Virus record (IMG/VR): IMGVR_UViG_3300042476_000233
Location: 1-60,887 of that record
Strand: one strand, 5' to 3'
DNA length: 60,887 bases
From: a virus
Taxonomy: Duplodnaviria; Caudoviricetes
Below are positions 3,444 to 53,173 of this stretch, piece after piece; position 1 is the first letter of the stretch; every line of letters starts with the position of its first letter. The position numbers were made by a program, and so were the translations under genes. The notes under the pieces were generated by a model. The model was not told where the DNA came from. It made no database searches and saw nothing but the letters and a program-made list of their open reading frames with translations.

Positions 3444-3797
3444 TTAAGGCGTGGGAGGGGTTGGCGCGGGCGGTGCCCACGGTAGCGGAGGTTCCGTTAC
3501 AGGGTTGACTTTAGCCGCAATTTGCTGCGCGATCTGCTCGTTGACGTGCTCTTCATAACTGCCGGTAACCACCGGCTGAATCCACCCCAGCACAATGGCC
3601 TGAGTGAGTTGGTCGAACGGCACGAAGTCCGGCTGATCCGGGGTAGGCGTGAAAGGCGTGGCGCCGTTGAAGGTGCCGGTGTTGCCGTTCTCGTCCGTGC
3701 CGGTCTTTGTCCAGTACGTCTGCACGACGTAGTTGGTTTCACTGCCGACGTTGGTCACCTTCATGCCGGTGACCGCCCAGGTGTATGTGATTGCCAT
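3444..3797 (-). CDS. tail-fibre-associated protein
   Basis: MAITYTW...FVPFDQLTQAIVLGWI...PPLPW pattern of the small gene commonly following phage fibres. Confidence 0.7.
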   Translation of the reverse strand: MAITYTWAVTGMKVTNVGSETNYVVQTYWTKTGTDENGNTGTFNGATPFTPTPDQPDFVPFDQLTQAIVLGWIQPVVTGSYEEHVNEQIAQQIAAKVNPVTEPPLPWAPPAPTPPTP

Positions 3798-3806
3798 GAT
3801 GTTTCC

Positions 3807-6800
3807 TTAATGTGCCCGCAGGGCGTTGAGTTCTGCCCGGAGGGCGACAACCGATTTTGCCAATTCCACGCATGCTGCCAAGGCTGCGTTGCCATAAGCA
3901 AGCGACAACGTACCGCTCGCGTCTTCACTGACCGCCTCGGGCCCGAAATCGCGGAAGTCCTGAGCAGACACGCCCATCTGACGCTCGCCGGAATCAATCC
4001 GGGTGTAGGTGCCACTCTTAATACGCGCCAGACGCTCAACGAAGTCGTCCGACAGTTCAGCCCAATCCTTCTTCAGCCGCTCATCCGAAAAGGCAGTTAC
4101 GTTACCGGCCATCGTGAGGTTGCCAGACATGTCCATTTGGAAGCGGTTTGCAGGTGCAGACCAGCCTCCGATGCGGAGTACGTTGTCCGAATCCAGACCC
4201 ATGTTGACGGCGTAACTGCCGCCACGATGGAACGACATGAACGCACTATTTCCGCCAGTGGCATAGGCTTGAAGCGGCGGGTTGCTTAATGACCCGGAGG
4301 TGCCGCCCAGGTTTGACTGGAAATACCAAGTGCCGTACACAGTTGCGTTATTAAGCGAAGAACTGCTCGCCGGGTCGAGGTAATAGGAGGTGTTGTTGTA
4401 GTCGTAGAAGATTGTTCCGCGAATATCAGCCGGAGTTACCAGTCTGCCGCCGCCCCACGCGCCTTGGAATCCACCGTTCTCCAAGATAAGCATGCCGTGA
4501 GAGGCAAGGTTTGACGCCACACCACCCGCGTTCGGATGCGACCACGCAATACCGTACAGGTTGCCCGTGCCCGTTCCGTTTGCCGGGAGAATATAGGATT
4601 CCCCCATTGAAAACACGGCTTGGTAGCGGAATGAGTCATACAGTCCAACCTGCCCGATACCGTAGTTTCGGGACACCATGTTGGAGTTGTAGTACACCTT
4701 GTTGAGTTCAGATGTACTTGCCGGGTCTACGTAATACCCGGTGTTATCGCTGTCATAGAAGATGGGGGCGCGGGCACTATTCGCAAAAATACTGTACCCA
4801 CGATCTACGCTGAAGTAAGAGTCATAGTAATAACGCCAGTACCAGCCCACAGCACTGTCATGTATGCCAGTTGTAACTCCACCATTATTGGTGTCGGTCA
4901 TCAATGTTATGCGCGAACCAAGGCCGTACCCAGTCCACGAATTGCGACCGACTGCATAAGTTGTTACGTTGCCGTATTGGTTGCCTCCAGACTGCGGAGC
5001 CCACAATCCATACCCGTAGGTCTGGAAATAAAGACCCGTGTCGCCCTGGGGACGGAACCAGTTGTTTGCAAGAACGTAACTTAATTGCGTAGTGCCCGCC
5101 GGATCAACGTAATACCCGGTGTCGTTGCTGTCGTAGAAGATGGGGGCGCGGAAGGAGCCGCTTGCAAAAACGTTACCGGAGGTATCAATTCCGGCAATTG
5201 TTGCGCCTGCGGCTTCCGAATAGAAGTGGAAATCTGCGGTACTAACCACTTGGTTAGCCGTCCGTTTACCAACATACCAACCACTACCTGATCCGCCGTT
5301 ATAGCGAACCATTGCTTCATAACCATTGCCGGGATTGATATAAAGGTACTTATTGGAAGCACCAATAAGGGTAAGATCAAAAAGAGCGGATGTACTCGCC
5401 GGGTCTACGTAATACCCGGTGTTGTTCAAGTCGTAAAAAATAGGCGCGCGCAAACTACTGGTATGCGACAACAGGCTTGCATTAATATCTACCCACGTGG
5501 CGCTGCTGTCATTACTACGGAGGTAGTAATTTGACGCATTCATGTAAATGGATGCGTTGTTACCTAACCATAATTTTGTAGCCCCACTAGGATCGTAGAA
5601 TTCCGTCCATGTAGCGCCACGGTTTAGAGCGTTTACCCCGCCAAGTTGTAATAGGTTGCCGCTCAGGTTCAGACCAACAAACGTCGGGCTGTTTCCAGTG
5701 CCTAAGTTCTGGTTAATCGTGTACGCCGTGATATTGCTGGACGTACCCGTAATAGAGATGCCCCAAGTACCCGAGGCACCGCCGCCCGTCAGCGTGGGGG
5801 CGTAGGAGTTGTAGTTGCCTGCATGGAGGACTTGGTTGCCGCCTTGTTGCAACGCTCCTGTAGCTACGTTGACTGTGCTGCCTGTAAGCCTTAACGAAGC
5901 GCCGGAAGATTGAAGGTTCAGTGTGCCATAAGTGCTGGTGTTGCGGTCGTAGACAATAATGTAGCCTTCGCCACTGCTCATGCCCACTTCAACTGCTTGC
6001 CCCGTTGCGGCATTCCCGCTATACCAGCCTGTAAAACGCCCCTGCCCCGTGGTGCTAACGTCACCAGAAAAATTACGCTGAGAAGTGGTAGTTGAATTGG
6101 TAGCCGTAGCAGCATTGCCGCTGATTGAAATGCCCCACGTCCCGCTTGCGTTCGCACCGGTTGTGCTTGGCGCGCCGATGGTGTTGTAGGAGACGGTCAG
6201 AGCACCACTGCCGTTGAAGCCGTTACCCGATGCCGCCCCCGCGCCGCTGTTGTTGAACGTGACGGAGTTGCTGACCTGCGTAGCCGTGGTCGAGGTTGTG
6301 GAGGTCGTCGCAGTCGCGGCGTTACCCGTGATGTTGATGTTCCACGTACCAGAAGCACCAGAGCCGGTCACAGACGGGATGTCAGTGCCGATCACTAGAC
6401 CCAGATTGCTGCGGGCTCCAGAAGCATCCGTCGCGCCCGTGCCGCCGTTGACCAACTGAAGCGTGCCGCTGACATGCGTCTGAAGACCAATCTTGCCCCA
6501 GGCAGGAGCCGTGCCCACACCACCCGAAATCAGGGCGTTGCCAGTGGCTACGTCAGCCAGTTTGGCCAGAGAAGTCGCCCCGTCTGCGTACAGCAGATCG
6601 CCCACCGTGTAGGACGTGATACCGGTGCCGCCGTAGGCTACACCAATCGTTGAGGCATTCCATGTACCCGCCGCAAGCGTGCCAACCCCGGTAATGCCGG
6701 TGTAGGAGCCAGACAGCCGCGCCACAGGCAACGTGCCCGAGGTGATGTTCGATGCGTTGGTCGTGTCTGTCGTAGCCGACGCAGCCAATCCTGACACCGC

Positions 6801-28715: not shown

Positions 28716-28826
28716 AATTTTTTTCACCCAACCCTTCCCACAACCGTGGGAAGGGGTTACACTGTCCACTTCTGGACAACCGTAGCCGCTGCGGATCAGC
28801 GGCAATCTCAACTAGGAGAAAGCAAC

Positions 28827-29801
28827 ATGGCTCATCAAATCATGATCAAAAACAACGTCGCTCAATACGCAAGTACGCAGAGGGAATGGCACGGCCTGGG
28901 GCAACTGATGCTGCCCGGTCAGTCCATTGAGAAATGGCAAGAGGAAGCCGGTATGAACTATGAAGTGCAGCGCGGTTATGTTCGCTACGCCACCGAGCGT
29001 GGCCAGTCGGCTGACGCCATGAAGGTAGTGAAGGACAAGGTGGTGCTGTTCCGCAGCGACACCAAGGATGCCCTGGGCGTGGTGTCTGATTCCTACAAGG
29101 TGGTGCAGCCCCGTGAGGTGCTGGAGTTCTTCCGCGACTGGGCCACGGCAGGTGGCATGACGATTGAAAGTGCGGGGGTCTTGTTTGGTGGCAAGCGGTA
29201 CTTCGCCACAGCGAAGATGGCAGCGGGGGTTTGTGTTGACGGGTACTCCGACAGGATCGTGCCCTACGCTCTCCTGTCTACCTCCGCCGATGGCTCCCTG
29301 GCCACCGAGGCACGGTGGACTACCGTCCGGGTTGTGTGCAACAACACCCTGAGCATGGCACGCGAGGGCAAGGCAGCAGTGCGGGTGACGCACCGTAGTG
29401 AGTTCAAGCCTGAAGATGTGCGCGATGTGTTGGAGAACGCCAACGCTGAGTTCCATGCCTTCATGGAGATGAGCCGCCAACTGGCGGGCATCAAGGTCGC
29501 ACGCCCCTTGGCAGAAGACCTGACTATGCACCTCTTCAAGACCGGCACAACCAAGGACGCCGACAAGGTCAAGGAGTCGCGTGGCTTCATTCGCGTGATG
29601 GAGTTGTTCAACGGCGCAGCCAAGGGCGCGATGCTTGAGACAGCGCAGGAAACTGCATGGGGTTGGCTCAACGCGGTCACCGAGTACGCTGACCACCACA
29701 TCCGCGCTCACTCGGATGAGAACCGCACCGCCTCTGCTCTGTGGGGCCAGGGCGACACGCTCAAGAACCGCGCAGTTGAGTTGGCTCTGGCTGCAGCGTG
29801 A
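28827..29801 (+). CDS. DUF932 / TIGR03299-type phage-plasmid protein
   Basis: MAHQI...WHGLG, LGVVSDSYKVVQP, TTVRVVCNNTL, TAWGWLNAVTEYADH. Confidence 0.88.
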   Translation: MAHQIMIKNNVAQYASTQREWHGLGQLMLPGQSIEKWQEEAGMNYEVQRGYVRYATERGQSADAMKVVKDKVVLFRSDTKDALGVVSDSYKVVQPREVLEFFRDWATAGGMTIESAGVLFGGKRYFATAKMAAGVCVDGYSDRIVPYALLSTSADGSLATEARWTTVRVVCNNTLSMAREGKAAVRVTHRSEFKPEDVRDVLENANAEFHAFMEMSRQLAGIKVARPLAEDLTMHLFKTGTTKDADKVKESRGFIRVMELFNGAAKGAMLETAQETAWGWLNAVTEYADHHIRAHSDENRTASALWGQGDTLKNRAVELALAAA

Positions 29802-29902
29802 AGACCGTCTCTTTCACTATCAACATCTCTTCTTCCGAGGGCTTGCGCCCTCGGTTGCTTCTGTCTAAACTTGGACTTCCCACAACCACAAAGGAGAAAG
29901 CA

Positions 29903-30292
29903 ATGACCGAAACCGTAACAACCCCAACCAAGATTAACAAGGCGGAACTCATCCGCACCCTGCTCAAAGACAAAACCAAATCCAAGAGCGACATCGCCGA
30001 GGAGGTCGGCTGCAAAGTGCAGTACGTCTTCAGCGTGCAGAACCATGACCGGGTGAGGGCCAGGAAAGCCAGGGCCAAGCGCAAGCTGGAGCGTCAGGCA
30101 GAACTGCGCAACGGCGCGCCCAAGCGCAAGTACACCAAGAGCGGAAAGTATGCGAAGCAGGTTCCCGCGCCCACCACGCCGATGGTGGAGCCGGTTGTGA
30201 AGACGCAGTACATCGAGATCGAGGTACCGCAGCCGCACTACAACCTGACATGGCGTCAGCGTTTCACTGCGCTGTTTTTCGGGAGGGTCTGA
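29903..30292 (+). CDS. HTH-containing protein
   Basis: SKSDIAEEVGCKVQYV helix-turn-helix; AAGGAGAAAGC RBS. Confidence 0.7.
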   Translation: MTETVTTPTKINKAELIRTLLKDKTKSKSDIAEEVGCKVQYVFSVQNHDRVRARKARAKRKLERQAELRNGAPKRKYTKSGKYAKQVPAPTTPMVEPVVKTQYIEIEVPQPHYNLTWRQRFTALFFGRV

Positions 30293-30294
30293 GC

Positions 30295-30489
30295 ATGAAG
30301 TTCTACGAGATCGAACTCAGGCGCGAGTCCTACATCACCGTTGTCGTCAGCGGCACCTCTGCGGAAGAAGCAGCGGAAAAGCTCCTCAACAACTTGGAGG
30401 AGTACGTCGATGGCGACCCCGATGAAGCCGACTGGGACATCACCGATATCAACGAAGCGGAAAGAACCGAGGAGGACAGAGCAGAATGA
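30295..30489 (+). CDS. small acidic protein
   Basis: MKFYEIELRRESYITVVV..SAEEA. Confidence 0.7.
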   Translation: MKFYEIELRRESYITVVVSGTSAEEAAEKLLNNLEEYVDGDPDEADWDITDINEAERTEEDRAE

Positions 30490-30647
30490 AAACACGCGCA
30501 TTGAAACTGGTACGTGAGTTGTTCGCCGTGGACTATGTGCCGCTGCACACGCAGCGCCACAACCAACGGCAGTGGGTCAAGAGCGTTCGTCAACTGGGTG
30601 ACCGATGGCTACTCGCAAAACCACTCGACCTGCCCAAGAAGCACTAG
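30486..30647 (+). CDS. small hypothetical protein (53 aa)
   Basis: ATGA overlap; MKTRALKLVR...LGDRWLLAK read by hand. Confidence 0.6.
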   Translation: MKTRALKLVRELFAVDYVPLHTQRHNQRQWVKSVRQLGDRWLLAKPLDLPKKH

Positions 30648-30766
30648 ACCCACCACCCAAGGTCTGGCCCTTCCCAACGTGGAAGGGCCGACCGTACAAG
30701 CAACCAAAACAACAAAAACCCGATCCGGTGGCGGGACTACCACCAGCACTGTTCTAGGAGAAAGCA

Positions 30767-31423
30767 ATGATCAAAGAAGAAACCTGCATCATCAGCCCGC
30801 CGAAGTTCGGCGTCACCGACTTCTACATCGAGGGCGCTGCGCCCCTGGTGGTGGAGCGGTTCAGCAAGAAGGCTGAACTCATGGCCAAGATGGCCGAGGG
30901 CCAGTCAGCCAAGAACAAGAAGGCCCGCGACGCACGGGACTACGACAAGGAAGCCGAAGAGGCGCGCTATCGCAGCATCGATGGGTGGGAGGGCATGAAC
31001 GCCGCCGCGTTCCGTGCCGCCATGATCAGCGCCTGCCGACTCGTGGGGTTCAAGATGACGCTGGCCAAGTTGTCTGCGTTCATCGAGGCCGATGGGTTCG
31101 ACAAGAACGATGGCGTCCCCCTCGTGCGCATCTACGGCGAGAGTCAGGTTTACACGGCGCATACTCGTAACGCTACGGGTGTGGTCGATGTGCGTTCCCG
31201 TCCCATGTATCGCAACTGGGCCGCGCGTCTGCGTGTCCGGTACGACATGGATCAGTTCAAGATGGCCGATGTCTTGAACCTTGTCTCCCGGTGTGGGATG
31301 CAAGTGGGTATCGGTGCAGGCCGTCCCGACAGCAAGGCTTCTGCCGGATGCGGGTTCGGTCTGTTCAACGTAGTCCCGAGTGATCGGGAGAAGGAAGTGG
31401 TCGCCAAGTACGGCATCCAATAA
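30767..31423 (+). CDS. solo RAMP/Cas7-like RNA-binding protein (candidate guide-RNA effector)
   Basis: N-terminal strand FYIEGAAPLVV, helix AAAFRAAMISA, C-terminal Gly-rich loop VGIGAGRPDSKASAGCGFGLF; stop codon abuts the pentamer array. Confidence 0.7.
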   Translation: MIKEETCIISPPKFGVTDFYIEGAAPLVVERFSKKAELMAKMAEGQSAKNKKARDARDYDKEAEEARYRSIDGWEGMNAAAFRAAMISACRLVGFKMTLAKLSAFIEADGFDKNDGVPLVRIYGESQVYTAHTRNATGVVDVRSRPMYRNWAARLRVRYDMDQFKMADVLNLVSRCGMQVGIGAGRPDSKASAGCGFGLFNVVPSDREKEVVAKYGIQ

Positions 31424-31942
31424 GGCAGGCTAGGCTCGTCTTGGTATCGACAGGCCCGTCCCGGTTAGGCAGGTTCGGCTCGTCCTGGCTAGGCGCGGTG
31501 CAGTACGGTTCAGCAAGGCAGGCGGGGCTAGGCGCGAATAGGCGCGTTTCGGCAGCGCGTGGCGAGGCAAGGCAGGTGCGTCAAGGCGGCGCGGGGCTTG
31601 GATCGACCCGGACAGGCAAGGCAGGTCTGGCGTGGACAGGCGGGTTCGGGCGAGGCACGGTTGGGTACGGCAAGGCAGGCGGGGCTGGGCTAGTCTAGTT
31701 CTGGTAGGGCAGAGCATGTTTCGGCAAGGCAGGCTTGGCAGGGCTCGGAGCGGCAGCGTCGGGCTAGGTATGGCACATCACGGCAGGCAAGGCTAGGCGG
31801 GTTCCAGTGCGGTCAGGTAAGGCTAGGCGAGGCAGGTCAGGAAAGGCCCGGCTTGGACGGGCGAGGTGCGGCGAAGCGAGGCAACGCACGGCAGGTAAGG
31901 CAAGGAAAGGCATCGCAGGGCCGGGCGCGGTGTGGTACCGCA
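31424..31942 (+). repeat. non-coding GGY-NN pentamer array, ten units (candidate guide-RNA array)
   Basis: Units start with GGCA at 31424, 31468, 31517, 31571, 31620, 31674, 31728, 31782, 31831 and 31890, each followed by 8-11 in-phase pentamers. Confidence 0.9.
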
Positions 31943-31968
31943 GGCATTTAACTTTTTAAGGAGAAAGC

Positions 31969-32424
31969 ATGAAAGAGGAACGGAAACTTTTGACTGACAT
32001 GGCACGGCGCAACGGCGGCGTGCTCAAGGTAGAGGACGTGATCGCTGAGGCAAGCAGTGCCGACAGCATCCTGCACAAACACTTTGAGTGGGACGACACG
32101 AAGGCTGCTGAGAACTACCGCAGGGAGCAGGCACGCTCGCTGATTCAGCGGTGCAAGATCACGCTGGTGGAGGGCGAGCCCGTATCCGTGCGGGCGTTCG
32201 TCAGTCTGCCGACTGATCGAGAGAGTGGCGGAGGCTACCGCCTCACGTCGGAGGTCATAAGCAACGAATCCCAGAAGGAGGAACTGCTGCGCGACATCCA
32301 GTTGACCATCGCCCGCTGGTCGCAGAAGCTGCACCTGCTCGATCAGGACATCGCTGAACTGCTCGAAGAGGTGGATAACCGAATCAATAGTAAACAGGCA
32401 GACGCTACGCGGGTAGCGGCCTGA
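31969..32424 (+). CDS. array-associated accessory protein
   Basis: NGGVLKVEDVIAEA...LHKHFEWDDTKAAENYRREQARSLI; AAGGAGAAAGC RBS right after the array. Confidence 0.8.
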   Translation: MKEERKLLTDMARRNGGVLKVEDVIAEASSADSILHKHFEWDDTKAAENYRREQARSLIQRCKITLVEGEPVSVRAFVSLPTDRESGGGYRLTSEVISNESQKEELLRDIQLTIARWSQKLHLLDQDIAELLEEVDNRINSKQADATRVAA

Positions 32425-32441
32425 ACCCATAGGAGCAAACC

Positions 32442-32567
32442 ATGCAGAGACTCAACGAAGATGACGGACTCGACGAACTGGGCTGGCTCGCCGCCATGCT
32501 GGGCGCCCTTGGCTTCCTGTTCTTCGCCCTGGTGTACTTCCTGCACTGGGCGGGGTGGCTTACATGA
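32442..32567 (+). CDS. small membrane protein (41 aa)
   Basis: AGGAG RBS; one hydrophobic helix. Confidence 0.6.
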   Translation: MQRLNEDDGLDELGWLAAMLGALGFLFFALVYFLHWAGWLT

Positions 32568-32683
32568 AATGGCTTGGTGAATTCATCGTCCTGTACTGGC
32601 TGATCACCGTCTTGGTCGTGGTGTTCCTCGCCCCGTTCGTGACGCTGATGATGTTGATCAGTTATTTGTGGGGGTTGGTATGA
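32564..32683 (+). CDS. small membrane protein (39 aa)
   Basis: ATGA overlaps at both ends; almost entirely hydrophobic. Confidence 0.55.
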   Translation: MKWLGEFIVLYWLITVLVVVFLAPFVTLMMLISYLWGLV

Positions 32684-33090
32684 GTGAAGCGTTGAGATTG
32701 GCTGAATTGATTGACAACGACCTGAAGAAATCCGCGCATCACGAAGAAGCCGCTGCTGAACTGCGCCGCCTTCATGCGGAGAACAAACGCCTGGAGACGC
32801 TCTGCTACGACTACCTTGGTGAACTGACAGCCATGCGTGCAGTGGAGCACATGCGAAAGCAGACCTTCATGGCTGAGTACAAGTTCCGCACTTACGGCTA
32901 CTACCAAGACGCCGACGGCAAGATGCAGGTGGGCGAGATACCGGAAGAGATGTTGACCGTGAGCGTAGAGGAGTTGATTGAGAAGGCTGTACTGGCCGAA
33001 CGTGAGGCGTGTGCGGAGTTGATTGAAGACATGGCTGTGCAGCACCCGAAGTACATCGCCGCCGCCATCAGAGCAAGGGGGCGGGAATGA
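32680..33090 (+). CDS. hypothetical protein
   Basis: EAAAELRRLHAEN and AEREACA...AAAIRARG motifs. Confidence 0.75.
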   Translation: MSEALRLAELIDNDLKKSAHHEEAAAELRRLHAENKRLETLCYDYLGELTAMRAVEHMRKQTFMAEYKFRTYGYYQDADGKMQVGEIPEEMLTVSVEELIEKAVLAEREACAELIEDMAVQHPKYIAAAIRARGRE

Positions 33091-33311
33091 GCGGCGACCA
33101 CAACGCAAACCAGAAAGGGGCCAAGGTACTGGCGCAGATCGATGCGGAGCCAAAGCCAAAACAAAAAGTGTCTGAGAGATCAGCGCGGGTGACCATCGGC
33201 ATGATGAGAACCCTCGCACGCGCCATCCCCATCAGCCCGTTCCATTTACACGCCGCAGATCAGATGGAGCGGATGCTTGACGAACTGATTCGATTAAGGA
33301 AAAAAACTTGA
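33087..33311 (+). CDS. hypothetical protein
   Basis: ATGA overlap. Confidence 0.65.
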   Translation: MSGDHNANQKGAKVLAQIDAEPKPKQKVSERSARVTIGMMRTLARAIPISPFHLHAADQMERMLDELIRLRKKT

Positions 33312-33718
33312 ACCCACCAAGCCCCAAAGGCAAGCGCCAGATCAAGATCAACGCGATCATGCAGGCGCAGTTGATCAAGCTCCTCCTCGAAGGCACCTAC
33401 ACGTGTACCGAACTGGCTGAGATGACGGGCCTTCACTACGTGACCGTGTGCCAATACACCAGGGAGTTGCATCGCGCGGGTGCCGCCCATATTGCTGCCT
33501 GGGAGAAAGACCCACGTGGCCGTGATCTGGCGAAAATCTACAAACTTGGTGTGGGCAACGACAAGCGGCGTCAGAAGAAGACGCAGGCCGAGCGGCAGCG
33601 TGCCTACCGCACCAAGAAGAAGCAGATCAAACTCATGGAGATGTTGACATCATGCAGTGCCCCGAGTGTGGAGCGAGAGCCCACGCCCTTGAAGTTAGAG
33701 CCACAACTGGTGGCCTGA
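33308..33718 (+). CDS. winged-HTH protein
   Basis: TCTELAEMTGLHYVTVCQYTRELH. Confidence 0.7.
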   Translation: MNPPSPKGKRQIKINAIMQAQLIKLLLEGTYTCTELAEMTGLHYVTVCQYTRELHRAGAAHIAAWEKDPRGRDLAKIYKLGVGNDKRRQKKTQAERQRAYRTKKKQIKLMEMLTSCSAPSVEREPTPLKLEPQLVA

Positions 33719-33963
33719 AGAGAAGGAGATATGAATGCTCACAGTGCAAACAAAGGTTCACGACAGTGGGGACGCCGAAAGACCTGCGGCTGGACCTGCA
33801 CAACAACCCCCACCGCCACGAGCAAACGATACGCAAGTCGCGGGCAACCACTACAAGCAGTTCCAAATCGAACCCTGGGACGCCATCATTGACTGGAATC
33901 TTGGCTACTTGGATGGCAACGCCGTCAAGTACCTCAGTCGATGGCGACACAAGAACGGAATAG
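33652..33963 (+). CDS. NrdR N-terminal-like Zn-ribbon protein
   Basis: MQCPECG...KRRRYECSQCKQRFTT; GGAG upstream; overlaps both neighbours. Confidence 0.6.
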   Translation: MQCPECGARAHALEVRATTGGLKRRRYECSQCKQRFTTVGTPKDLRLDLHNNPHRHEQTIRKSRATTTSSSKSNPGTPSLTGILATWMATPSSTSVDGDTRTE

Positions 33964-34031
33964 AAGACCTCAAGAAGGCGCGCCACTACATCGACAAGCT
34001 GCTTGAGGTAGAGCAGGCAAAGAAATCATAG
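33735..34031 (+). CDS. DUF3310 (SaV-like) protein
   Basis: QVAGNHY..IEPWD...GNAVKYLSRW..KNGIEDLKKARHY. Confidence 0.8.
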   Translation: MLTVQTKVHDSGDAERPAAGPAQQPPPPRANDTQVAGNHYKQFQIEPWDAIIDWNLGYLDGNAVKYLSRWRHKNGIEDLKKARHYIDKLLEVEQAKKS

Positions 34032-34196: not shown

Positions 34197-34514
34197 ATGG
34201 GCTTATTTGGCGGGGTCACCTACGACCCAGAGAAAGACAAGGATAGGCTGCTCACGCAGCTAGGCCGTGTTCGAGATGTGATGTTCGATGGCCAGTGGCA
34301 CACGCTGGCCGAGTTGGTGGTTCGATGTGGCGGCTCCGATGCCTCGGTCAGCGCCCGCATACGCGACCTTCGCAAGAAGAAGTTCGGTGAATACACCGTC
34401 CACAGGAAGCGCATACGCGATGGCTTGTGGGTCTACAAACTGGAGTTGCCCGATGGCTACAACCCCCGAAGTCAAGGTCAAGAAGCAGTGCGTGACACTG
34501 CTCAATGCCCATAA
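34197..34514 (+). CDS. HTH-like protein
   Basis: DGQWHTLAEL...SDASVSARIRDLRK; AAGGAGAAAGC RBS. Confidence 0.7.
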   Translation: MGLFGGVTYDPEKDKDRLLTQLGRVRDVMFDGQWHTLAELVVRCGGSDASVSARIRDLRKKKFGEYTVHRKRIRDGLWVYKLELPDGYNPRSQGQEAVRDTAQCP

Positions 34515-34761
34515 GGTTTACTACTTCTTCCCCGTGGCCTCGGGCTACGGTAGGGTGGGCATCCCCGACATCATCGCCTGCTGCGATGGCCACTTCCTGG
34601 CCATCGAGTGCAAGGCAGGCAAGAACAAACCAACCGCCCTGCAGGAAGCCGAGATGCTCAAGATACGCACGGCAGGCGGCACGACCCTCGTGATCAACGA
34701 GGACAACATCAACGAACTACAGGGGTGGTTAGATGCTAGGAGTCAACTACATGAACAATGA
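34453..34761 (+). CDS. VRR-NUC nuclease (putative Holliday junction resolvase)
   Basis: TPEVKVK...GIPDII...FLAIECKAG..PTALQ. Confidence 0.85.
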   Translation: MATTPEVKVKKQCVTLLNAHKVYYFFPVASGYGRVGIPDIIACCDGHFLAIECKAGKNKPTALQEAEMLKIRTAGGTTLVINEDNINELQGWLDARSQLHEQ

Positions 34762-44552: not shown

Positions 44553-44757
44553 GAAGGGGCAGGGGTTCTTCATCCCTGCCCTAGACCTCGACGCCACGCG
44601 TGAGGCGGGGCTAGTGGACGCTGTCAGGCAGCGGGTGGTGGACGCGCACGCTATGTACGCTATCCACCAGGGCATGCAGGGTGTGCTGTTTTACCGGCAC
44701 ACCAAGCACGTCACATCTCCCTCAACTTCGCGGCGTCCGAAGCATCCCGCACCATAG
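44521..44757 (+). CDS. small hypothetical protein
   Basis: LPWTTLEKGQGFFIPALD; last plus-strand gene before convergence; start uncertain. Confidence 0.55.
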   Translation: MSVKLPWTTLEKGQGFFIPALDLDATREAGLVDAVRQRVVDAHAMYAIHQGMQGVLFYRHTKHVTSPSTSRRPKHPAP

Positions 44758-47700
44758 ACGACAGCTTGATCTTCACCTGCTGAATCCGATCCAACAGCGC
44801 GCGCTTCTCGTCTGGCGTCTTGCTTGATGCCCGGATGGCGCCTTCGACCTTGGTCAACTCGCCCATCTCCTGCCGGTAGTAGCCCGCCAGTTCAGCCCGG
44901 GCGTACTCGTTGGCACGGGCGTCGAGCAGCGCACGGGCCTCAGCCTTGTCGCCCCGGTTGACCAACTCGTTGAACGACGACTGAACCTTGCGGGAGTCGT
45001 CCAGGGCGTCGTAGGTGCTGTTGATGACCCACCGGGCATCGTTGGGCTGGAAGGCGCTGCCAACCACCGGCATGTCGGACAGGCGCTTGGTGGCCTTCTC
45101 CGGCGTGTCCTTTGTGGGGATCGGCAGGCTTGCCGCCTGCAGCAGCGCCATACCCATCGTGCTGAAGTAGCCGCTGATGAGCGCCTCCAGTTTGATGGGG
45201 CTGACGCCCGCCGCACCACCGAAGAGCTTGGCCAGTTCGGTCGTCTTCTCGCGGTACTGATACTCCGGCAGCAGTGCCTGCTCCTTGGCCGACAGCAGCG
45301 GGCGCTCGGTAAACATCGAGTAGTTGGTCATCACCTCGATGGCAGGCTTCATGGCTTGCGGGATGAAGTAAGCAGAGCCGCCAGGGATGGTGTTGCGCAA
45401 AATGCCGAGCAACGCTTCCTTGGCTTCCTCACCCCCGCGCTCGTTGACGATGCTGTTGTAGATCGCCTCGGGCAACGCCTTGAAGATGTAGCCGATTTCA
45501 AACGGGATAGGAATGCGCAGAGGCTCCGACACGCCAGGAAGGCGGATGAACCAGTTGCCGTACTTCTCAGCAGGCAGCGCGTTCTTGTACGCCTCGTCGT
45601 CCTGCATCGCGTGGGCGTAGGCCAGGGTAGCCGCCATCAGCATGGCGCCGCGCGTGATGAGCTTGGCCTTGATCCGAGCACGCTCGCCTGCCGTAATCTG
45701 GCCAAACATTGCCCGGTACAGCACGTTCAGACCTTGCACCTGCGCGTTGAAGAACGGGTACAAGGAGTTCGCCATGTGGGCACTGGGCGACGCACCGCGC
45801 TTGTTGAAGTTCATCGACTCCAACGAGAGCATCGTGGCCTCCATCTCGGACATGCCCTGCTTGATGTAGCTGTTGTACTGAGCGCGGCGAGTCAAAGCGT
45901 CGGCTTCCATACCCGCCCACTCCAGCGCGCCGAGGGTCTTGGTAATGGCTGACCGGCCCCCGACAAGATCACGCATGATCTTGCTGAGGTCTTCCTGCGT
46001 ACCCGTGAACATCTGCCCACCGGTGATGCCGCGCCGCTCAAGCGTGCCCTTGGCAGAACTCTCGATCTCACGGAGCGCACCCAGCACGGGCGGGAAATCG
46101 GCACCAGACGCAATCGAAGCGGCCAGTGAGTCACGCATCAACTGACGCACCATGTACAGCGGGTTCAGTGTCACAGCGCGGCGCAGCAACTGCGTCGGAA
46201 CCGTAAGCGCACGCATGATGCCGGTGGTCTGGAGCGGGATGCCCTCCATGCCCTTGACCAGGATGTCCGCGTTGACGCCCGTGTTGACCTTCTTACCGCC
46301 GACTTCGACAGTATCGGTTTCAAGAACCGCGTAGCGGTCTTCGCCGTTGTGCTTGAACCGCACAACCTCCGGGCCGTCAACAGGCTTGGCTGTGATCTTG
46401 GCCATGCCCAGATCAAGCAACTCGAACATCGCGTTGCGGGTGGCCAGATTGCGCAGCGCCAAGTCCACCATCATATTGGTGTTCTGCACCGAACTGATCA
46501 TGAAGTCGAGGATCGGCTTATCGCCGCCCACCAACTCCTGCAGGTGCGGCATGTCCTTGACATTGCCCAGCTTGATCGGAGTCAGCCCACCGAGCGCCAG
46601 TTCAGCAACGCCGTTGCGCTCGCGGTACCAGGGAATGTAGTCCTTGGATGCGAGCAGTGCGTCTGCGTCTTTCTTGCTCAGCACGCCTGCCTTCTGGGCG
46701 AAGCGCACGAGGTTCTCGTTGTACTGGTTGTAGATGTCCCGAGCGTTGTCGAAAATGTCCTGCAGCCCCTCGACAGACCTAACCTGGGCCACGGTATCCC
46801 GCAGCTTCTGCTCAGTGATCTTGGGGTCGCGCAGATTGAGCTTGTCGAAGCCCACACGCTCAGCGCGCTTTGCGGCCAGATACAGGGTGAACAGACGGCT
46901 CGTAGCATCGACATCGCCGACAAGGCGTGCTGCGCCCTTGAGCGTAACGGCCACTTGCCGCAGGCTTGGGCCGGTCTGGCTCTCAACAATGAACTCGCGC
47001 TCACCGTCCCTACGCTGGACTTCGCGGACGTCCAGTGCGCCGTTGGCCACAGACTGCGCCGTGAAGTTCATGCGCTGGTCGTACATGCGCAGGTAGTACA
47101 TCATCTGCGTGCCCTTGAGCTTATCCATGTACTTGGACAGGCGCTCGAACCCGGCAAAACGATCTACCAGACCCGTCTCCATCGCCAGACCGCTGGACTT
47201 GGCGCGGATGGGTTGCCACCAAGATTGGTTGCCCGCAACGATGCTGCGCCCAAACGCATCCGCCTCGGCCAGGGCCGGGTTCAGATTGCGCGGCTGATTG
47301 AGTACCTTCGGGGCCAACAGCGCGTTGTCAGCCTGGGTCGGACGCGGCACCTTCGTCATCAGGTTATCGACCGCAGCCAACGTGGCTTCGAGCATGTTCT
47401 CCGGCGTCTTGATGCCAAGCATCCGCAAGAGCGCGCTCTTGAACGAGTCCCACATGTGGCGCAGCGTCCACTTCTGCTGCCGCATCTCTGCCTGCATCAC
47501 GTCGTCGGACAGCGCCTCAGACGCAAACTCACTCAAAGATGTTTTGGCGTTCTCGTTTGTCGCACCCTTTAACTTCTTATACGCCTCAAAAAGTTCTTCC
47601 AGTTCCCGCTTGGCACGGCGCTGATCATCCGTAAGCTGATCCTCGGGCATTTGAATGACGCGCTCGGTAGCGGCGTGCACACCTTCGTGGACAGCCGTGC

Positions 47701-50700
47701 GCTCGTTCAAACCGTACTTGGCATCCAGGCGGATAAAGGAACCGTCAGCCGCAGCCTGACCGTATGCTGCCTGCCCGTCCGGGTCACGCAGATCATTGAC
47801 AATCTCAACGCGGGTGTTGCCCAGGAGCAGCTTCAGGCGGTCTGCCACTGCGCGGGTGAGGTCGTTAGTGGTGGACTCAGCGATGTTGCTCATGACAACC
47901 GCTGCGCTCTTCTCACTATCAACTTCTTCTTTCAACGCAGGCCCTTGCGACGCAGTCGCAGCCAGTTGCTGCAGCGTTTCGGGCTTATCAAACAGTGCGT
48001 CGAGGTCTTCGGTTCCGGTTTTCAAAATGCCGGTGTCCGCAACTTCTTCAGCGTCAAACTCAGCGCGCTCCTGCTCAAGCGCCTTCTCTGCCAGTTCTTC
48101 ACTAGTGAGTTCTTCTTCGCCCTCTTCTTCGCGGCGCTGACGCTCGACTTCGCTTTCTTTGGTGGGCTTGCGGCTGCGACGGTAATCCGTCAGCAGCATC
48201 TGCTCCAGTTCAGTCAGCGGCTCCTTGCGCTCCTGCTTGTCGCGGGCCTGTTCAACAATGGTCAGTTCGGCAAGACGCGCCTTCTCTTCAGCAGTCGGCG
48301 TCTCCTTCAGCAGCGCCTGCTTTTCTCTCTTGATCCGAGCGGCCTCTGCCGTGATGGCTGTCTCTTGCCCAACACCCTTGCTGCTGTAGCGCGTGCCCTT
48401 GGGCTTGCGCTCCTTCTCAATCTCCGACTTAGTTGTGGCGGTGATATCCAGCTTGGGTGCGCCTTCACGTGCCGCAGCCTCGGCAAGTTCTTTCTGATTC
48501 AGGACGTCCTGAATCTCCTTAAGTTCGGCTTCGGTCTTGCGCTTGCGCGGCTTGGGCGGCTCAGCGACTTCTACTTCGCCACGATCAATCAGCCCCTTCA
48601 GCCACGCCTCACGACGCAACATCTCAGACAGTGCTGCTTGGTAACCAACCAGACCCTTGGGCATTACCCGGGCGTTGAGCGCGTTGGTGACCGCGTCGTT
48701 GTATGCCTTCTCAAGCGCATTAACAATAGGCATCAAGTTGGCGCGGGCCTGTGATGTCTTAGCTGCACTGTATGCACGCAACGCAGCTTCGTAGGGCGCT
48801 CGCTCCTTCACCCCTTCAACGGTCTGCGCACGAGCCTTGTCGTAGGCTTCCTTCAAAGCCTTGGTGATCGTGGTGATGTAGGCGCGATAGCCCTTGAGCA
48901 CTTGCTGAGGATTGCCCCGCACCTGCCGCATCTCGTCGGCCAGGATGGTAGGCGTGTCGTCTTCCCGTGCCGCGCGCTGTGCGTCGGTAATGGGGTCGTA
49001 CGCCATTGATCGCAGGGGCTGACCAAACCGATCAACGCCTTCGGGCGCTTTCTGCTGACGCTCAAGCGCAGCTTGCTGCGCAAGGTAACCTTCGGTGCGC
49101 TTGAGATCGGCTTTGGCTCTGTCGGCGGCGTTTGCTGCGCGGCGCGCCGCCGCCTCTTGCGCGGCTGTACGCCCCTCGATGGCGCCAATCTCTTTGGTCA
49201 GCTTGGATGCCGCCGCTTGGGCAGAACGCAGTTCTTTCTTGGCTGCGGCAAGCGCAGCGCGATCCACCGCTTCCTGGCTCTCGTATTGGTAGGCTTTGAG
49301 TTCGGCGTTAGTCAAACGCGCTATTGCGTCAACACGCGCCAGTGCCGCACCAATTGCGTCGAACTGTTGGGTCAGCGCGTTGATGTGTTTGCCGACAGCG
49401 GTCTTGCCCTCTTCCGCAACAAGCTGCTCCTTGAGCAGCGACTTGTCTTTGTCAGAAATGTTGAACTTGTCGATGAAGTCCGACGCTTGGTTGCGCGGAA
49501 TCTTGAGTTCAACAAGCGCGGCACCCAGTTCACCCTGGCGCGCCACTGCGGTCAGCACGCTGCCAAAGTTTTCCTGCACGTTAGCCAGTTCTCTGCGCAG
49601 CGAATCGGGGTCAAGCCCGGCGCTGCCAAACTGTTTCTCGGCTGCACGCAGTTTTGCCTGCTGCTCCTCGGCAACTTTCAAGTACTCGCGGATTGCAGCG
49701 ATGCGGTCGGTAATACCCGTCGTTCCTGAAACTGTAGCCGTCTCAGGAATCTCAAGGGACTCAAGCGCACTCAATTCTTTCTTGAGCGCCCGAATCTGCG
49801 TGGCAGGCAGCATCTCTGCCCGCACGGCTTCAATATCGGCAATGACCGCGTTGAGCTTGGCGATCTTCTCGTTCAGTTCGTCAAGCTGCTTGCGCGCCCG
49901 CTCCAGCTTCTTAGCGTCGGGTTCAAACTGTTTGCGCAGACGATCAGCCTCTGCGCTGTCGAGGAATCGCTGGAACCGACCAGGGGTAGCGCGCTCGGTA
50001 ACGAGCTTTGCCTGCTCTTCGGGGAACAGGCTCGTCTGCCCCATTTCGCCTTCGCGTACACGTTCAGCCTGCTCCACAAACGGCTCAAGCTCAGCCTGAA
50101 GAGACAGCGGCAGCGCCTTGGTGCTGGGGCCGCGAAGAGTGCCGGGAACAAGTTGATCGCCCTCAACGCGAGTGGGCGTAAAGTCACGTGCGGGGCGCTT
50201 TGTTACTGCCGCCTTGGCTTGCGCCATTTTGCGCAAGTTCTCGGGCACTCGGCCTTCTTCAAAGTCAGCAAAAGACTCAGCACGCGCCTGCTCGGGCTTC
50301 ATGCCTGCGTTGACCTTCTGCTGATACAGCGCCTGCTTGATGATGTCTTCTGCCGTGGCACTTTCAGTAGCGGCCACGTCCGCGCGGCCCTCAGCGGGAA
50401 ATGCCTGCAGCGTAGTCTTGCGACCCGCGCCTGGACGTGCCATGCCCTCTTCGCCGCTTTCGATGCGACGAAGCTGCTCATCAAGGAGGCTATACAAACT
50501 ACGGGCAGGTGCAGCGCCTGTACCTTCAGGCGATATCTTCTTCGGGCGGTCTACCTTCGCAACCTGCTCAGTATCCACGAGCATTTTGAGAATCTGCTCG
50601 TCGGTTTGTTTTCCTTGCTTGCCAAAACTTGCCAGGGGGATGTTTTTGCCTTGCCGCAAACGCACATCAGCCACATCAGGCTTAATGTTTCTCTGCTCAT

Positions 50701-53173
50701 CAACAGGGCGAAAGACTTCTACCGTAACTTCGCTGCCGTCTTCCAAGCGCGCAGGGTAGGAAATTTTTGCTTCTTTCCCACTTTTGGTAATTACATATCC
50801 TGGCGTAGTGGCACCAGTCGTGTATGTAACGCCCGGTTTGAACGCGCCGGGAACCTGCTCTAGTTCTGCAACCTCACGGTCTTTCTCAGGGAGCGAACGC
50901 TCCATCCGGCTCAGGAACTCGTATGCCTCGTCAGACAGGCGGTTACTGGCCATCGCCCGGGTAAGGCGCTCTTGCAGTTCCTCGCGGGTGACTTCACGCG
51001 CAGCAGGCTCAGCCTCGCCAAACAAACGGAACTCACCCTTGGCGCGGCGGGCTTCGCCCGTGGGCTTGAGGACGTTGCGCGGGACAAGTCCCTGCTCCCC
51101 GAGATCGGTGGTGATGTCGAACAGCCTGCGGTTGACCTCTTTGCCAAGCGCGTTCTGTGCACGCTCAAGTTGAGTAGCGCGGCGCTCAAGGCGAACCTTC
51201 TCGTCGCCTTCGGCAGTCTTGGCCTTCTCCTGCACATCGCGCAGGAGTGCCGTCGCGCGGTCGTAGCGCATGGTGGCCGGAGCCATTGAAAGCTGTTGCG
51301 TCAGACTGGCCATCACGCGGTTCTGCTGCGCAGGCTCCGTCGCTGCCATCATCCTATCGATGAGGTTTTCAGCTTCCTTGGGCAGCGCAAACTCAGGGCG
51401 GGGGACAACATCGCCCATGCTGCGCTGGAAGCCCGCAACGTCTTGCTGCGGGGCAGTACTGGCTTCAAACGCTTTGCGTGCCTGCTCTTGTTGTGCAGTG
51501 CGCGCCGCCGCTTTCTCTTGTCGTTCTGCCTCGTCAGCCTTCTTCTGCTCTTCAAGTGCGTCGAGTTGCAGCTTCAACCCACCAAGAATTGCGTTGCTCT
51601 CACGCTTCTTAAGACCGGGGATTGGCTCGTTCGCTTCTACAAGCGCCTTTGCCATAGCCGGGTCTTGCATCAGGTAGGCCACATAGAACGCAGGGCGCTC
51701 ATTGGCTTCTCTTGAGTCTACGTACGCCTGTTCGTTTGCAAGATTGATGCGCGACTGTGCGTACGTCAATGCCGGTGAGGGGGGTAGCCCGAAGTCTTCT
51801 TCGCCCGTAAACACCCGCTGTTGTGCGAGGGGGGACGTAAGGTCAACACCGGCCTGCTCCATCTGGTATTCCAGAGGGCTGAGCGCAGCAATACGCTTTT
51901 GTTCGTCGGTCAGTTCAGGCGGCTTCGGCGGTGCCGGGGGCACAAGCGACTTAACTCGGTTGTACTCGGGCGCCTGTTCCTTCAGTTGCGTCGCCAGTTC
52001 GTTGCGGCGCTTCTTCTGGGCCTCATAGGTCTGCTTCTCAGCAAACGAAGCGCCGGGAGGCAGCTTCTGCTTGAGCAGTTCGCCAAGGTCGTTGTACTCT
52101 TTCTGCAGCGCGTCGTGCTGCTGCATGAAGTTGAGCGCGTACTCAGGCGTCTGTTTCTCCGCCGCAGCCTTTTCTTCGGCCAGACGCTCCTGCTCGCGCT
52201 GCTCTTTCAGCGCCTTGCCACGCTCAAGTTCTTCCCTGACCTCGACCCGCTCGCGGGCTGCACCACGCTCGGCCACACGACCGGCAGCACCGATAGGTGC
52301 AAGCAGACTGGTCTGGTACGCCGTCTCACCATACTCCTTGAGCGCGTCCTCACTGAGCAGCGGCAGGCCTGCCTGCACACGCTCCAGCATCTGTTGCGTG
52401 ACTTCAGTGGGGATCTCCGCCATCGCGCCAACCGCCGTGCCCTTGGCCAACGTCTTGAGCAGCGTCTCCTTGGCGAGCTTCTCAGCGCCTTCTTCGGCGC
52501 CTTTCTCCAGCATCTTGGCAACACCAGGGCCAAGCGCCTTACCGGCCAGGGTGCGGCCTAGCGGAACAAAAGTAGCAGCGACGTCCAGGGCGGCTTGCGG
52601 AGCGGCTGCACCATAGGCAGCAGCACGACTGATGGGTTGGCCCTCAGCGGCTTGGCGCTGAATGTTGCCTCCAGCCTGTTGGAAGAACGATGGCGCAACA
52701 GCACCGGCAAGACCGCCGACAACACCGCCCACGGGGCCAAAAGCAGCACCGGCCATAGCGCCAAGGCGCGCGCCTGCAAGCGTGGTAGCAATATTGGGAG
52801 CCTGCTCAGCCAAGGCGTAGGGCACTTGGCTAATGACCTCTCCGGCAGCGGGCAGCAGCCCGCGCTCTTGGTAGGCTTTCTTGACCCGGTCAAGGCTGAC
52901 TTGCTCAGCGTAACGGCGCTGAATGTCTTCTTCCCGAAGACGCGCTTCTCTTGCCGCCTCCTCGGGGGCGACGACGCCTTTGACACCTGCGCGCAGGGCG
53001 CTCAGTGCAGATTCTGCACCCTTGCCGACAGCGGCAAGAACACCTTCTGAGGGCTTAGGCTGCTGCGCGATCTGCTGCTTGACTACAGCAATGATCTGTT
53101 CTTCGGAAGCGCCTGCTGGCCCCTCCACATCGTAAATTCTCCCGTCCGGGCCTTGTACGCTGTAAATGGGCAT
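44711..53173 (-). CDS. giant polyvalent internal virion/ejection protein (metallopeptidase motif, LPD38-like C-terminus)
   Basis: 2820 aa; long coiled coils; AVHEGVHA; C-terminal PFFNAQVQG...RIPIPFEIGYIFKALPE. Confidence 0.8.
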   Translation of the reverse strand: MPIYSVQGPDGRIYDVEGPAGASEEQIIAVVKQQIAQQPKPSEGVLAAVGKGAESALSALRAGVKGVVAPEEAAREARLREEDIQRRYAEQVSLDRVKKAYQERGLLPAAGEVISQVPYALAEQAPNIATTLAGARLGAMAGAAFGPVGGVVGGLAGAVAPSFFQQAGGNIQRQAAEGQPISRAAAYGAAAPQAALDVAATFVPLGRTLAGKALGPGVAKMLEKGAEEGAEKLAKETLLKTLAKGTAVGAMAEIPTEVTQQMLERVQAGLPLLSEDALKEYGETAYQTSLLAPIGAAGRVAERGAARERVEVREELERGKALKEQREQERLAEEKAAAEKQTPEYALNFMQQHDALQKEYNDLGELLKQKLPPGASFAEKQTYEAQKKRRNELATQLKEQAPEYNRVKSLVPPAPPKPPELTDEQKRIAALSPLEYQMEQAGVDLTSPLAQQRVFTGEEDFGLPPSPALTYAQSRINLANEQAYVDSREANERPAFYVAYLMQDPAMAKALVEANEPIPGLKKRESNAILGGLKLQLDALEEQKKADEAERQEKAAARTAQQEQARKAFEASTAPQQDVAGFQRSMGDVVPRPEFALPKEAENLIDRMMAATEPAQQNRVMASLTQQLSMAPATMRYDRATALLRDVQEKAKTAEGDEKVRLERRATQLERAQNALGKEVNRRLFDITTDLGEQGLVPRNVLKPTGEARRAKGEFRLFGEAEPAAREVTREELQERLTRAMASNRLSDEAYEFLSRMERSLPEKDREVAELEQVPGAFKPGVTYTTGATTPGYVITKSGKEAKISYPARLEDGSEVTVEVFRPVDEQRNIKPDVADVRLRQGKNIPLASFGKQGKQTDEQILKMLVDTEQVAKVDRPKKISPEGTGAAPARSLYSLLDEQLRRIESGEEGMARPGAGRKTTLQAFPAEGRADVAATESATAEDIIKQALYQQKVNAGMKPEQARAESFADFEEGRVPENLRKMAQAKAAVTKRPARDFTPTRVEGDQLVPGTLRGPSTKALPLSLQAELEPFVEQAERVREGEMGQTSLFPEEQAKLVTERATPGRFQRFLDSAEADRLRKQFEPDAKKLERARKQLDELNEKIAKLNAVIADIEAVRAEMLPATQIRALKKELSALESLEIPETATVSGTTGITDRIAAIREYLKVAEEQQAKLRAAEKQFGSAGLDPDSLRRELANVQENFGSVLTAVARQGELGAALVELKIPRNQASDFIDKFNISDKDKSLLKEQLVAEEGKTAVGKHINALTQQFDAIGAALARVDAIARLTNAELKAYQYESQEAVDRAALAAAKKELRSAQAAASKLTKEIGAIEGRTAAQEAAARRAANAADRAKADLKRTEGYLAQQAALERQQKAPEGVDRFGQPLRSMAYDPITDAQRAAREDDTPTILADEMRQVRGNPQQVLKGYRAYITTITKALKEAYDKARAQTVEGVKERAPYEAALRAYSAAKTSQARANLMPIVNALEKAYNDAVTNALNARVMPKGLVGYQAALSEMLRREAWLKGLIDRGEVEVAEPPKPRKRKTEAELKEIQDVLNQKELAEAAAREGAPKLDITATTKSEIEKERKPKGTRYSSKGVGQETAITAEAARIKREKQALLKETPTAEEKARLAELTIVEQARDKQERKEPLTELEQMLLTDYRRSRKPTKESEVERQRREEEGEEELTSEELAEKALEQERAEFDAEEVADTGILKTGTEDLDALFDKPETLQQLAATASQGPALKEEVDSEKSAAVVMSNIAESTTNDLTRAVADRLKLLLGNTRVEIVNDLRDPDGQAAYGQAAADGSFIRLDAKYGLNERTAVHEGVHAATERVIQMPEDQLTDDQRRAKRELEELFEAYKKLKGATNENAKTSLSEFASEALSDDVMQAEMRQQKWTLRHMWDSFKSALLRMLGIKTPENMLEATLAAVDNLMTKVPRPTQADNALLAPKVLNQPRNLNPALAEADAFGRSIVAGNQSWWQPIRAKSSGLAMETGLVDRFAGFERLSKYMDKLKGTQMMYYLRMYDQRMNFTAQSVANGALDVREVQRRDGEREFIVESQTGPSLRQVAVTLKGAARLVGDVDATSRLFTLYLAAKRAERVGFDKLNLRDPKITEQKLRDTVAQVRSVEGLQDIFDNARDIYNQYNENLVRFAQKAGVLSKKDADALLASKDYIPWYRERNGVAELALGGLTPIKLGNVKDMPHLQELVGGDKPILDFMISSVQNTNMMVDLALRNLATRNAMFELLDLGMAKITAKPVDGPEVVRFKHNGEDRYAVLETDTVEVGGKKVNTGVNADILVKGMEGIPLQTTGIMRALTVPTQLLRRAVTLNPLYMVRQLMRDSLAASIASGADFPPVLGALREIESSAKGTLERRGITGGQMFTGTQEDLSKIMRDLVGGRSAITKTLGALEWAGMEADALTRRAQYNSYIKQGMSEMEATMLSLESMNFNKRGASPSAHMANSLYPFFNAQVQGLNVLYRAMFGQITAGERARIKAKLITRGAMLMAATLAYAHAMQDDEAYKNALPAEKYGNWFIRLPGVSEPLRIPIPFEIGYIFKALPEAIYNSIVNERGGEEAKEALLGILRNTIPGGSAYFIPQAMKPAIEVMTNYSMFTERPLLSAKEQALLPEYQYREKTTELAKLFGGAAGVSPIKLEALISGYFSTMGMALLQAASLPIPTKDTPEKATKRLSDMPVVGSAFQPNDARWVINSTYDALDDSRKVQSSFNELVNRGDKAEARALLDARANEYARAELAGYYRQEMGELTKVEGAIRASSKTPDEKRALLDRIQQVKIKLSSMVRDASDAAKLREM

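Follow-up and report, generated by a model that had tools for sequence, protein, structure and literature searches.

What is the function of a G-rich array of five-base units that is inserted between two small genes of a tailed phage? Such an array is carried by the IMG/VR virus contig IMGVR_UViG_3300042476_000233, a sequence of 60,887 nt that was analyzed over its full length (referred to as the window). On the + strand, the order is an open reading frame (ORF) of 218 amino acids (aa), the array, which starts without gap after the stop codon TAA, and an ORF of 151 aa. Both ORFs, their common strand and the gapless junction had been described in a previous reading made from the letters alone (the sequence-only reading), and the coordinates were confirmed. 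The locus very probably represents a VIPR (Viral Interference Programmable Repeat) system because it combines a RAMP protein of the Vipr family, a GGY-NN array, a conserved partner gene and a fast turnover of the NN positions. The proposal of an RNA-guided system, as made in the sequence-only reading, is thus supported, and systems of this kind are already known from 2026 preprints.

VIPR was reported in one of these preprints (bioRxiv 10.64898/2026.04.26.720920), to which a further preprint (10.64898/2026.10.15.759431) and a companion study by cryo-electron microscopy (10.64898/2026.04.26.720927) are to be added. According to the parts of the first preprint on which we draw, VIPR consists of a stand-alone ancestral RAMP, Vipr, and of vrRNAs with 9-16 YNNGG repeats, reads double-stranded DNA by means of the NN letters, skipping one base, and silences the transcription of rival phages and satellites; seven types are distinguished, and the search rule was the presence of at least four YNNGG repeats. 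'Staggered arrays' are also described, and in the same parts of the text confirmation by small-RNA sequencing is stated for the hammerhead-interspersed and single-vrRNA architectures, not for the staggered one. A likeness to phage VIPR (GGY/NN) systems had been pointed out in the sequence-only reading and proved to be right, the 218-aa protein being matched to the structure 36pp_D and the published description fitting the locus.

The periodicity of the array was measured as self-identity at lag 5, which was 0.523 over positions 31424-31942 against a mean of 0.251 (standard deviation 0.028) for 519-nt windows taken from the whole record, and every one of the 15 top-ranked windows overlaps or abuts the array. 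A pentamer detector, which called for GG at the start of at least 7 out of 9 pentamers in a row, was applied to both strands of the 60,887-nt record and was positive only at 31619-31683 and 31727-31943 on the + strand, with nothing detected on the - strand of the whole record. The five-base period noticed earlier is therefore real, but it is not strict as had been claimed: ten phase slips of -1 were found, at 31428, 31472, 31521, 31575, 31624, 31678, 31732, 31786, 31835 and 31894. The phase shifts by one base per unit because the units close with a four-base GGCA in place of a pentamer, and the array is laid out as GGCA, ten guide units of 8-11 pentamers each, and again GGCA (Table 1). The closing tetramer is GGCA in nine of the ten units and CGCA in the last. 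The end of the array, formerly placed at 31942, had to be moved to 31946 to include the terminal GGCA.

Among the 95 full pentamers of the ten units (31428-31942), GG was observed in 71 and a pyrimidine at the third position in 86; the canonical GGY, held to be constant in the sequence-only reading, is complete in only 64 of 95. The predicted folding of the array RNA was not better than that of shuffled sequences (z -0.31), and no Rfam family was found above threshold within the array, a single sub-threshold match being located outside it. Structured 3' tails are absent from the units, which abut each other via GGCA. As in VIPR, a non-coding GGY/NN pentamer array is located next to the RAMP gene.

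Table 1. Components of the vipr locus and guide units of its array, in coordinates of the window.
Feature	Coordinates	Strand	Description
vipr ribosome-binding site	30757-30760	+	GGAG
vipr	30767-31423	+	218-aa stand-alone RAMP/Cas7-like protein; ends TAA
Whole array	31424-31946	+	non-coding, G-rich (44% G), between vipr and accessory gene
Leading GGCA junction	31424-31427	+	straight after vipr stop; same TAA-GGCA leader in L006, L007, L016, L036 and L048
U1	31428-31471	+	8 pentamers + GGCA; NN = TA TC TT AT CA CC CC TA; several degenerate GGY; 86% identical counterpart in L006 and L048
U2	31472-31520	+	9 pentamers + GGCA; identical in L048, 98% in L006
U3	31521-31574	+	10 pentamers + GGCA; unrelated unit instead in L006 and L048
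U4	31575-31623	+	9 pentamers + GGCA; identical in L006 and L048
U5	31624-31677	+	10 pentamers + GGCA; unrelated unit instead in L006 and L048
U6	31678-31731	+	10 pentamers + GGCA
U7	31732-31785	+	10 pentamers + GGCA
U8	31786-31834	+	9 pentamers + GGCA; identical in L006 and L048
U9	31835-31893	+	11 pentamers + GGCA; first nine NN kept in L006, L048, L016 and L036; best natural match (rpoN, 20/22)
U10	31894-31942	+	9 pentamers + CGCA; identical in L048
Terminal GGCA	31943-31946	+	closes array; GGCA-GGCA end also in both Cy-LDV1 arrays
vap-like accessory gene	31969-32424	+	151 aa; PHROG 15946, E 1.4e-18; no known family or fold

The 218-aa protein gave no match in Pfam, NCBIfam or PADLOC, and in PHROG it was matched to family 4652 of unknown function (6.7e-19). 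The protein family is large: 4,636 members were counted at E <= 1e-3 in a collection clustered at 90%, and 2,106 representatives when the clustering was at 50%. A Vipr identical to that of the window occurs on 35 contigs. When a family profile built from 63 members was compared with the Protein Data Bank (PDB), one match only was obtained at E <= 10, namely 36pp_D, 'SUSP1 Vipr protein' (E 2.4e-7, query 147-198). The SUSP1 vipr ORF was located in the SUSP1 record as part of a two-gene locus between long intergenic regions, and hhalign of the family against this 195-aa ORF gave a probability of 95.8 and E 7.8e-9 over 55 columns. The AlphaFold2 (AF2) model of the protein has a high predicted local distance difference test score (pLDDT 92.1) and a predicted template modelling score (pTM) of 0.87; its comparison with PDB by Foldseek gave 22 matches at E <= 0.001, with RAMP chains of type III Csm, type VII and type III-D/E on top, in agreement with the RAMP/Cas7-like fold first suspected from short motifs. 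These motifs are all present, and the Gly-rich stretch among them holds the six invariant columns of the 63-sequence alignment, G177, G181, G185, R186, G194 and G198, all in the C-terminal Gly-rich loop. With its small size, its one RAMP domain, its Gly-rich loop and its relationship to a known Vipr, the protein belongs to the Vipr family of RAMPs.

The association of this gene with an array was examined in its relatives. Among the 67 IMG/VR loci, a same-strand array is located directly 3' of vipr in 65, and the other two contigs stop 2-3 nt past the gene; a minus-strand array was found in none of the 67. By tblastn, a homologue was detected in 30 phage records, including Cyanophage Cy-LDV1 (57% identity), 25 phages of Mycobacterium and 4 of Gordonia. 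All four isolate-phage loci examined (Cy-LDV1, Donkeykong, ODay and UmaThurman) contain same-strand GGY-NN arrays beside vipr with the same GGCA|GG junctions, and both prophage relatives, in Azohydromonas aeria and in a gammaproteobacterial metagenome-assembled genome, also carry arrays. The adjacency of the GGY-NN array anticipated for homologues was thus observed in 65 of 67 IMG/VR loci and in 6 of 6 other loci. The vipr gene, the array and the conserved accessory gene always occur as a set, all on the same strand.

The sequence features of the units are also shared. In 66 loci (the window and 65 relatives), 571 of the 624 units that close at a register slip end with GGCA, and the unit lengths cluster at 39-64 bases. 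For 394 distinct units, G was found at positions 1 and 2 in 86-90% and C or T at position 3 in 82%, positions 4 and 5 being near-uniform, and the last full pentamer of the units tends to GGCAA. In tail-less arrays, GGCA followed by GG provides a clean criterion for where one guide ends and the next begins.

The number and position of arrays differ among phages. A single array, between vipr and the accessory gene, is present in the clade of the window. Cy-LDV1 (L001) has two, at 4620-4806 and 5417-5550, one separating vipr from the accessory gene and the other past the latter; locus L074 also has two, at 3751-3892 and 5176-5487, one lying upstream of vipr and the other beyond the 3' end of the accessory gene. 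In two deposited actinophage genomes, coding sequences for hypothetical proteins, gp48 of Mycobacterium phage Donkeykong (L002:2438-2824) and gp40 of Gordonia phage UmaThurman (L004:3583-3906), coincide with GGY-NN arrays beside a Vipr homologue. These two annotated genes are probably guide arrays mistaken for protein genes.

The content of the guides was compared between closely related loci. Between the window and L007, the Vipr proteins are 99% identical, the vipr DNA 97.9% and the accessory gene 95.2%, against 54.9% for the array, and none of the ten units is in common. In L006 and L048, of which the Vipr protein is 100% identical to that of the window, 6 and 7 of the 10 units are in common at 90% identity or above. 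The units with counterparts in the window keep the same order, U3 and U5 are swapped for unrelated units in both loci, and the last unit is also replaced in one of the two. The remaining loci have no unit in common with the window. The NN letters change much more quickly than the genes on either side, as would be expected if programmable guides were subject to diversifying selection. Such a cassette-like replacement of guides is here seen between phages with identical Vipr proteins.

The third component, the 151-aa accessory protein, has 371 homologues. Its ORF is preceded, after the array, by TTTAACTTTTT and then by the ribosome-binding site AAGGAG, as read from the sequence. In 63 of 67 IMG/VR loci, an accessory homologue comes next after the array, the remaining four lacking the corresponding DNA; such a gene also adjoins vipr in Cy-LDV1, Donkeykong, ODay and UmaThurman, the homologues of which share the conserved block LHxxFEWDDxxAAxxYRxxQARxLI. 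The family spans phages of proteobacteria, cyanobacteria and actinobacteria. No match to this protein was obtained in Pfam, NCBIfam or PADLOC, and nothing meaningful among PDB sequences (best E 0.054); a fold search with its model gave generic helical hairpins only, and the Atlas unnamed viral clusters only. By analogy with the published vap genes, the accessory protein may bind DNA or aid silencing. The locus is minimal in the sense of VIPR, with a vap-like gene and without cas genes or a CRISPR array.

The setting of the locus in the genome was then considered. The phage, which is from lake water, is tailed and nearly complete at about 61 kb (CheckV completeness 95%). By protein family scans, terminase, portal and major head protein were assigned to the - strand, and DNA polymerase A, helicase and primase to the + strand downstream of the locus; these structural and replication genes provide the viral context in which VIPR is found. 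Among the 48 window proteins scanned, neither an integrase nor any Cas family was identified, and no CRISPR-like repeat was detected in a tandem-repeat scan of the record, in agreement with the sequence-only reading, which had noted the lack of cas genes and of a canonical repeat-spacer array. No tRNA genes were found. Within 29700-33400, no promoter-like site was detected, and from the start of vipr to the end of the 151-aa gene no terminator-like site was detected on the + strand; both results are compatible with a single operon. Based on the two prophage relatives, the host is probably a member of Burkholderiales.

The early region around the locus includes genes for a DUF932 protein (28746-29801), a DUF3310 protein (33735-34031) and an Hjc-like Holliday-junction resolvase (34288-34761). 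A 2,820-aa ORF at 44711-53173 on the - strand encodes a giant virion-type protein, for which the sole PHROG match, over the last 370 residues or so, is to a family of unknown function. In two lake-water DNA runs (X6 and X10), one contig each joins position 30717 to 32455, bypassing the entire vipr-array-accessory module (1,737 bases). This junction hints at related phages without the module or with a different module.

Taking these components together with the published work, a mode of action may be proposed. By analogy with SUSP1 and with the work on P. fulva, vipr, the array and the accessory gene would be transcribed as one operon, and Vipr protomers would coat the G-rich transcript, one per pentamer, gripping GGY and exposing NN. 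Each ribonucleoprotein would then, as in the published systems, read double-stranded DNA in the pattern NN-x-NN-x and block transcription of a competing mobile element, with silencing enhanced by the accessory protein. The four-base GGCA at the end of a unit would break the five-base register, and the break would either end one filament and start the next or mark a cut, so that ten guides, each with 8-11 dinucleotides and no tail, could arise from one transcript. As a minimal 3' handle, the semi-conserved GGCAA-GGCA at the end might take over the part played by the structured tail in type II vrRNAs. An extended form of this model, in which the GGCA register stops and starts the filaments, parcelling the ten guides without ribozyme, hairpin or dedicated nuclease, and in which U9 is in addition aimed at the host sigma-54, is in our estimation unlikely; if true, both a new processing logic and a role in host takeover would be added to VIPR.

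Several observations weigh against the assignment to VIPR. The alignment of the protein with SUSP1 Vipr covers the C-terminal quarter only. The accessory alignment shows no detectable likeness to SUSP1 vap1, the ORF beside vipr (hhalign, probability 0.5), and the AF2 model of the accessory protein is poor (pLDDT 66.4). In the array, 31 of 95 pentamers (one third) are not canonical GGY, and some guides may therefore be decaying. The equation of the locus with staggered arrays is by the description in a figure legend of the preprint only. None of the listed sequencing runs is recorded as RNA; a run that bears the label RNA-Seq probably consists of DNA, and its contigs are uninformative on expression. 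The other points concern targets, as no natural target was established for any guide. When the 388 different guides of the window and of 65 relatives were compared with every locus retrieved, allowing skips of 0-3, six real matches were obtained at 0.9 or above, against 1-7 in ten shuffles, and the skip rules were indistinguishable. The exact patterns with one base skipped (NN-x) of U4, U5, U7, U8 and the U9 core, i.e., 5 of the 10 guides, gave no match in IMG/VR, and reading the U9 core with 0 or 2 bases skipped likewise yielded nothing. In metagenome contigs the U9 core gave 36 exact matches, heterogeneous in frame and gene and chance-like, which include ten identical copies and smaller groups of three and two, each seemingly from one organism.

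A single lead came from the full U9, searched as a 22-letter NN-x pattern with 2 mismatches, and on this lead rests a different view of the same ribonucleoprotein, i.e., that at least one guide is aimed at the host gene rpoN, so that the system would help a lytic phage to take over its host and would not serve in conflict between mobile elements. The pattern was found in rpoN in 3 of 401 sampled genomes of the family to which the host of the Azohydromonas prophage belongs, and in 5 of 30 genomes of one genus, with no match for the reversed-pattern control. All matches are at one site, in frame, in the 5' portion of rpoN, around codons 43-53; in L112:1501-1532 and in others, all from Burkholderiales-type genomes, the site corresponds to the codons for QNPFLEA(D/E)E(D/E)T of sigma-54 and agrees at 20 of the 22 letters. 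The bases that are skipped lie at third (wobble) codon positions and are those that vary among the genomes, and the first nine NN of U9 are kept in relatives with 88% identical Vipr. Against these points, about 0.4 matches are expected by chance in a search of 401 genomes (our own arithmetic, for uniform composition), and homologous genes multiply one chance event. The two mismatches are the same in all seven distinct rpoN matches (L112 turned up in both searches), no better match was present in 430 distinct genomes, and the central mismatch, where the guide has CG and rpoN has CT, persists in all three guide variants. None of the other guides in the 394-member set converges on rpoN, U5 and U7 gave no match in the 30 genomes of the genus with rpoN matches, and U9 gave none in the two prophage host genomes. 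Between the phage (window 1-60000) and three of the rpoN-match genomes, only short, weak DNA matches were detected, and none of the four loci checked in such genomes is inside a repeat or CRISPR array. The match of U9 to rpoN is a weak lead only, of doubtful significance, and a guide directed against rpoN is very unlikely.

The same failure to find a target, together with the canonical GGY being limited to 64 of 95 pentamers and the loss of several G's from U1 relative to its counterpart in L006 and L048, could also be understood as decay, in which the genes are intact and the drifting guides no longer program silencing. Both ORFs are intact, though, with identical Vipr on 35 contigs, the GGCA junction is kept at nine of ten unit ends (CGCA at the tenth), and degenerate pentamers are also common in the relatives, where G at positions 1-2 stays at 86-90% family-wide; an inactive remnant is thus highly improbable. 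That the array codes for protein, or is a structural DNA repeat such as iterons or a G-rich element unrelated to its neighbours, is extremely unlikely. Open frames of 85 aa (+) and 95 aa (-) do traverse it, and the equivalent arrays of Donkeykong and UmaThurman were deposited as genes, but a five-base period with a slip of -1 every 44-59 nt preserves no reading frame. The content of the array is unrelated between phages with 95-98% identical flanking genes, its strand is in every case that of vipr, and the partner protein is related to a solved RNA-binding Vipr. A VIPR system remains the reading best in accord with the protein, the array and the partner gene.

The relationship to known systems can now be stated. 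In the absence of Cas10 or other effector genes and of a repeat-spacer array from the 60.9-kb record, the locus is not of type III (Csm/Cmr), and Vipr differs from Csm3, Cmr4 and Cas7 of type III and type VII in sequence (6-14% identity) and in step, with a gapped read-out of 5 nt in place of 6 nt. The type II VIPR of Escherichia phage SUSP1 (PDB 36pp, KT454805.2) resembles the locus in its Vipr, which is homologous in the C-terminal G-loop region, in its GGY-NN guides on the vipr strand, in its two-gene organization and in its lytic phage. The order in SUSP1 is, however, vrRNA, vipr, vap1 and three vrRNAs, in contrast to the array between vipr and the accessory gene, and each SUSP1 vrRNA has a hairpin-containing 3' tail and a spacer sequence, in contrast to ten tail-less guides. 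The accessory proteins of the two are not detectably related and the Vipr sequences align over 52-55 residues or columns only; the structured 3' tail and vap1 of type II are both lacking. The closest likeness is to the staggered vrRNA arrays, which according to the results and the legend of fig. S18 (10.64898/2026.04.26.720920) also consist of a stand-alone Vipr, GGY/NN guides and a small accessory gene in a phage without cas genes. Guides that abut without spacer or tail, as described there, fit the one-base slip at GGCA|GG, and the locus best fits this description. On each point compared, i.e., the protein, the array, the accessory gene without cas and the viral context, the locus agrees with VIPR. 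The kind is thus already published, and the understanding of what VIPR is stays unchanged; the locus adds a boundary rule, a turnover pattern, an accessory family and the recognition of annotation errors in deposited actinophage genomes, where arrays are entered as protein genes. As the VIPR class is only months old, each locus dissected helps to map its diversity.

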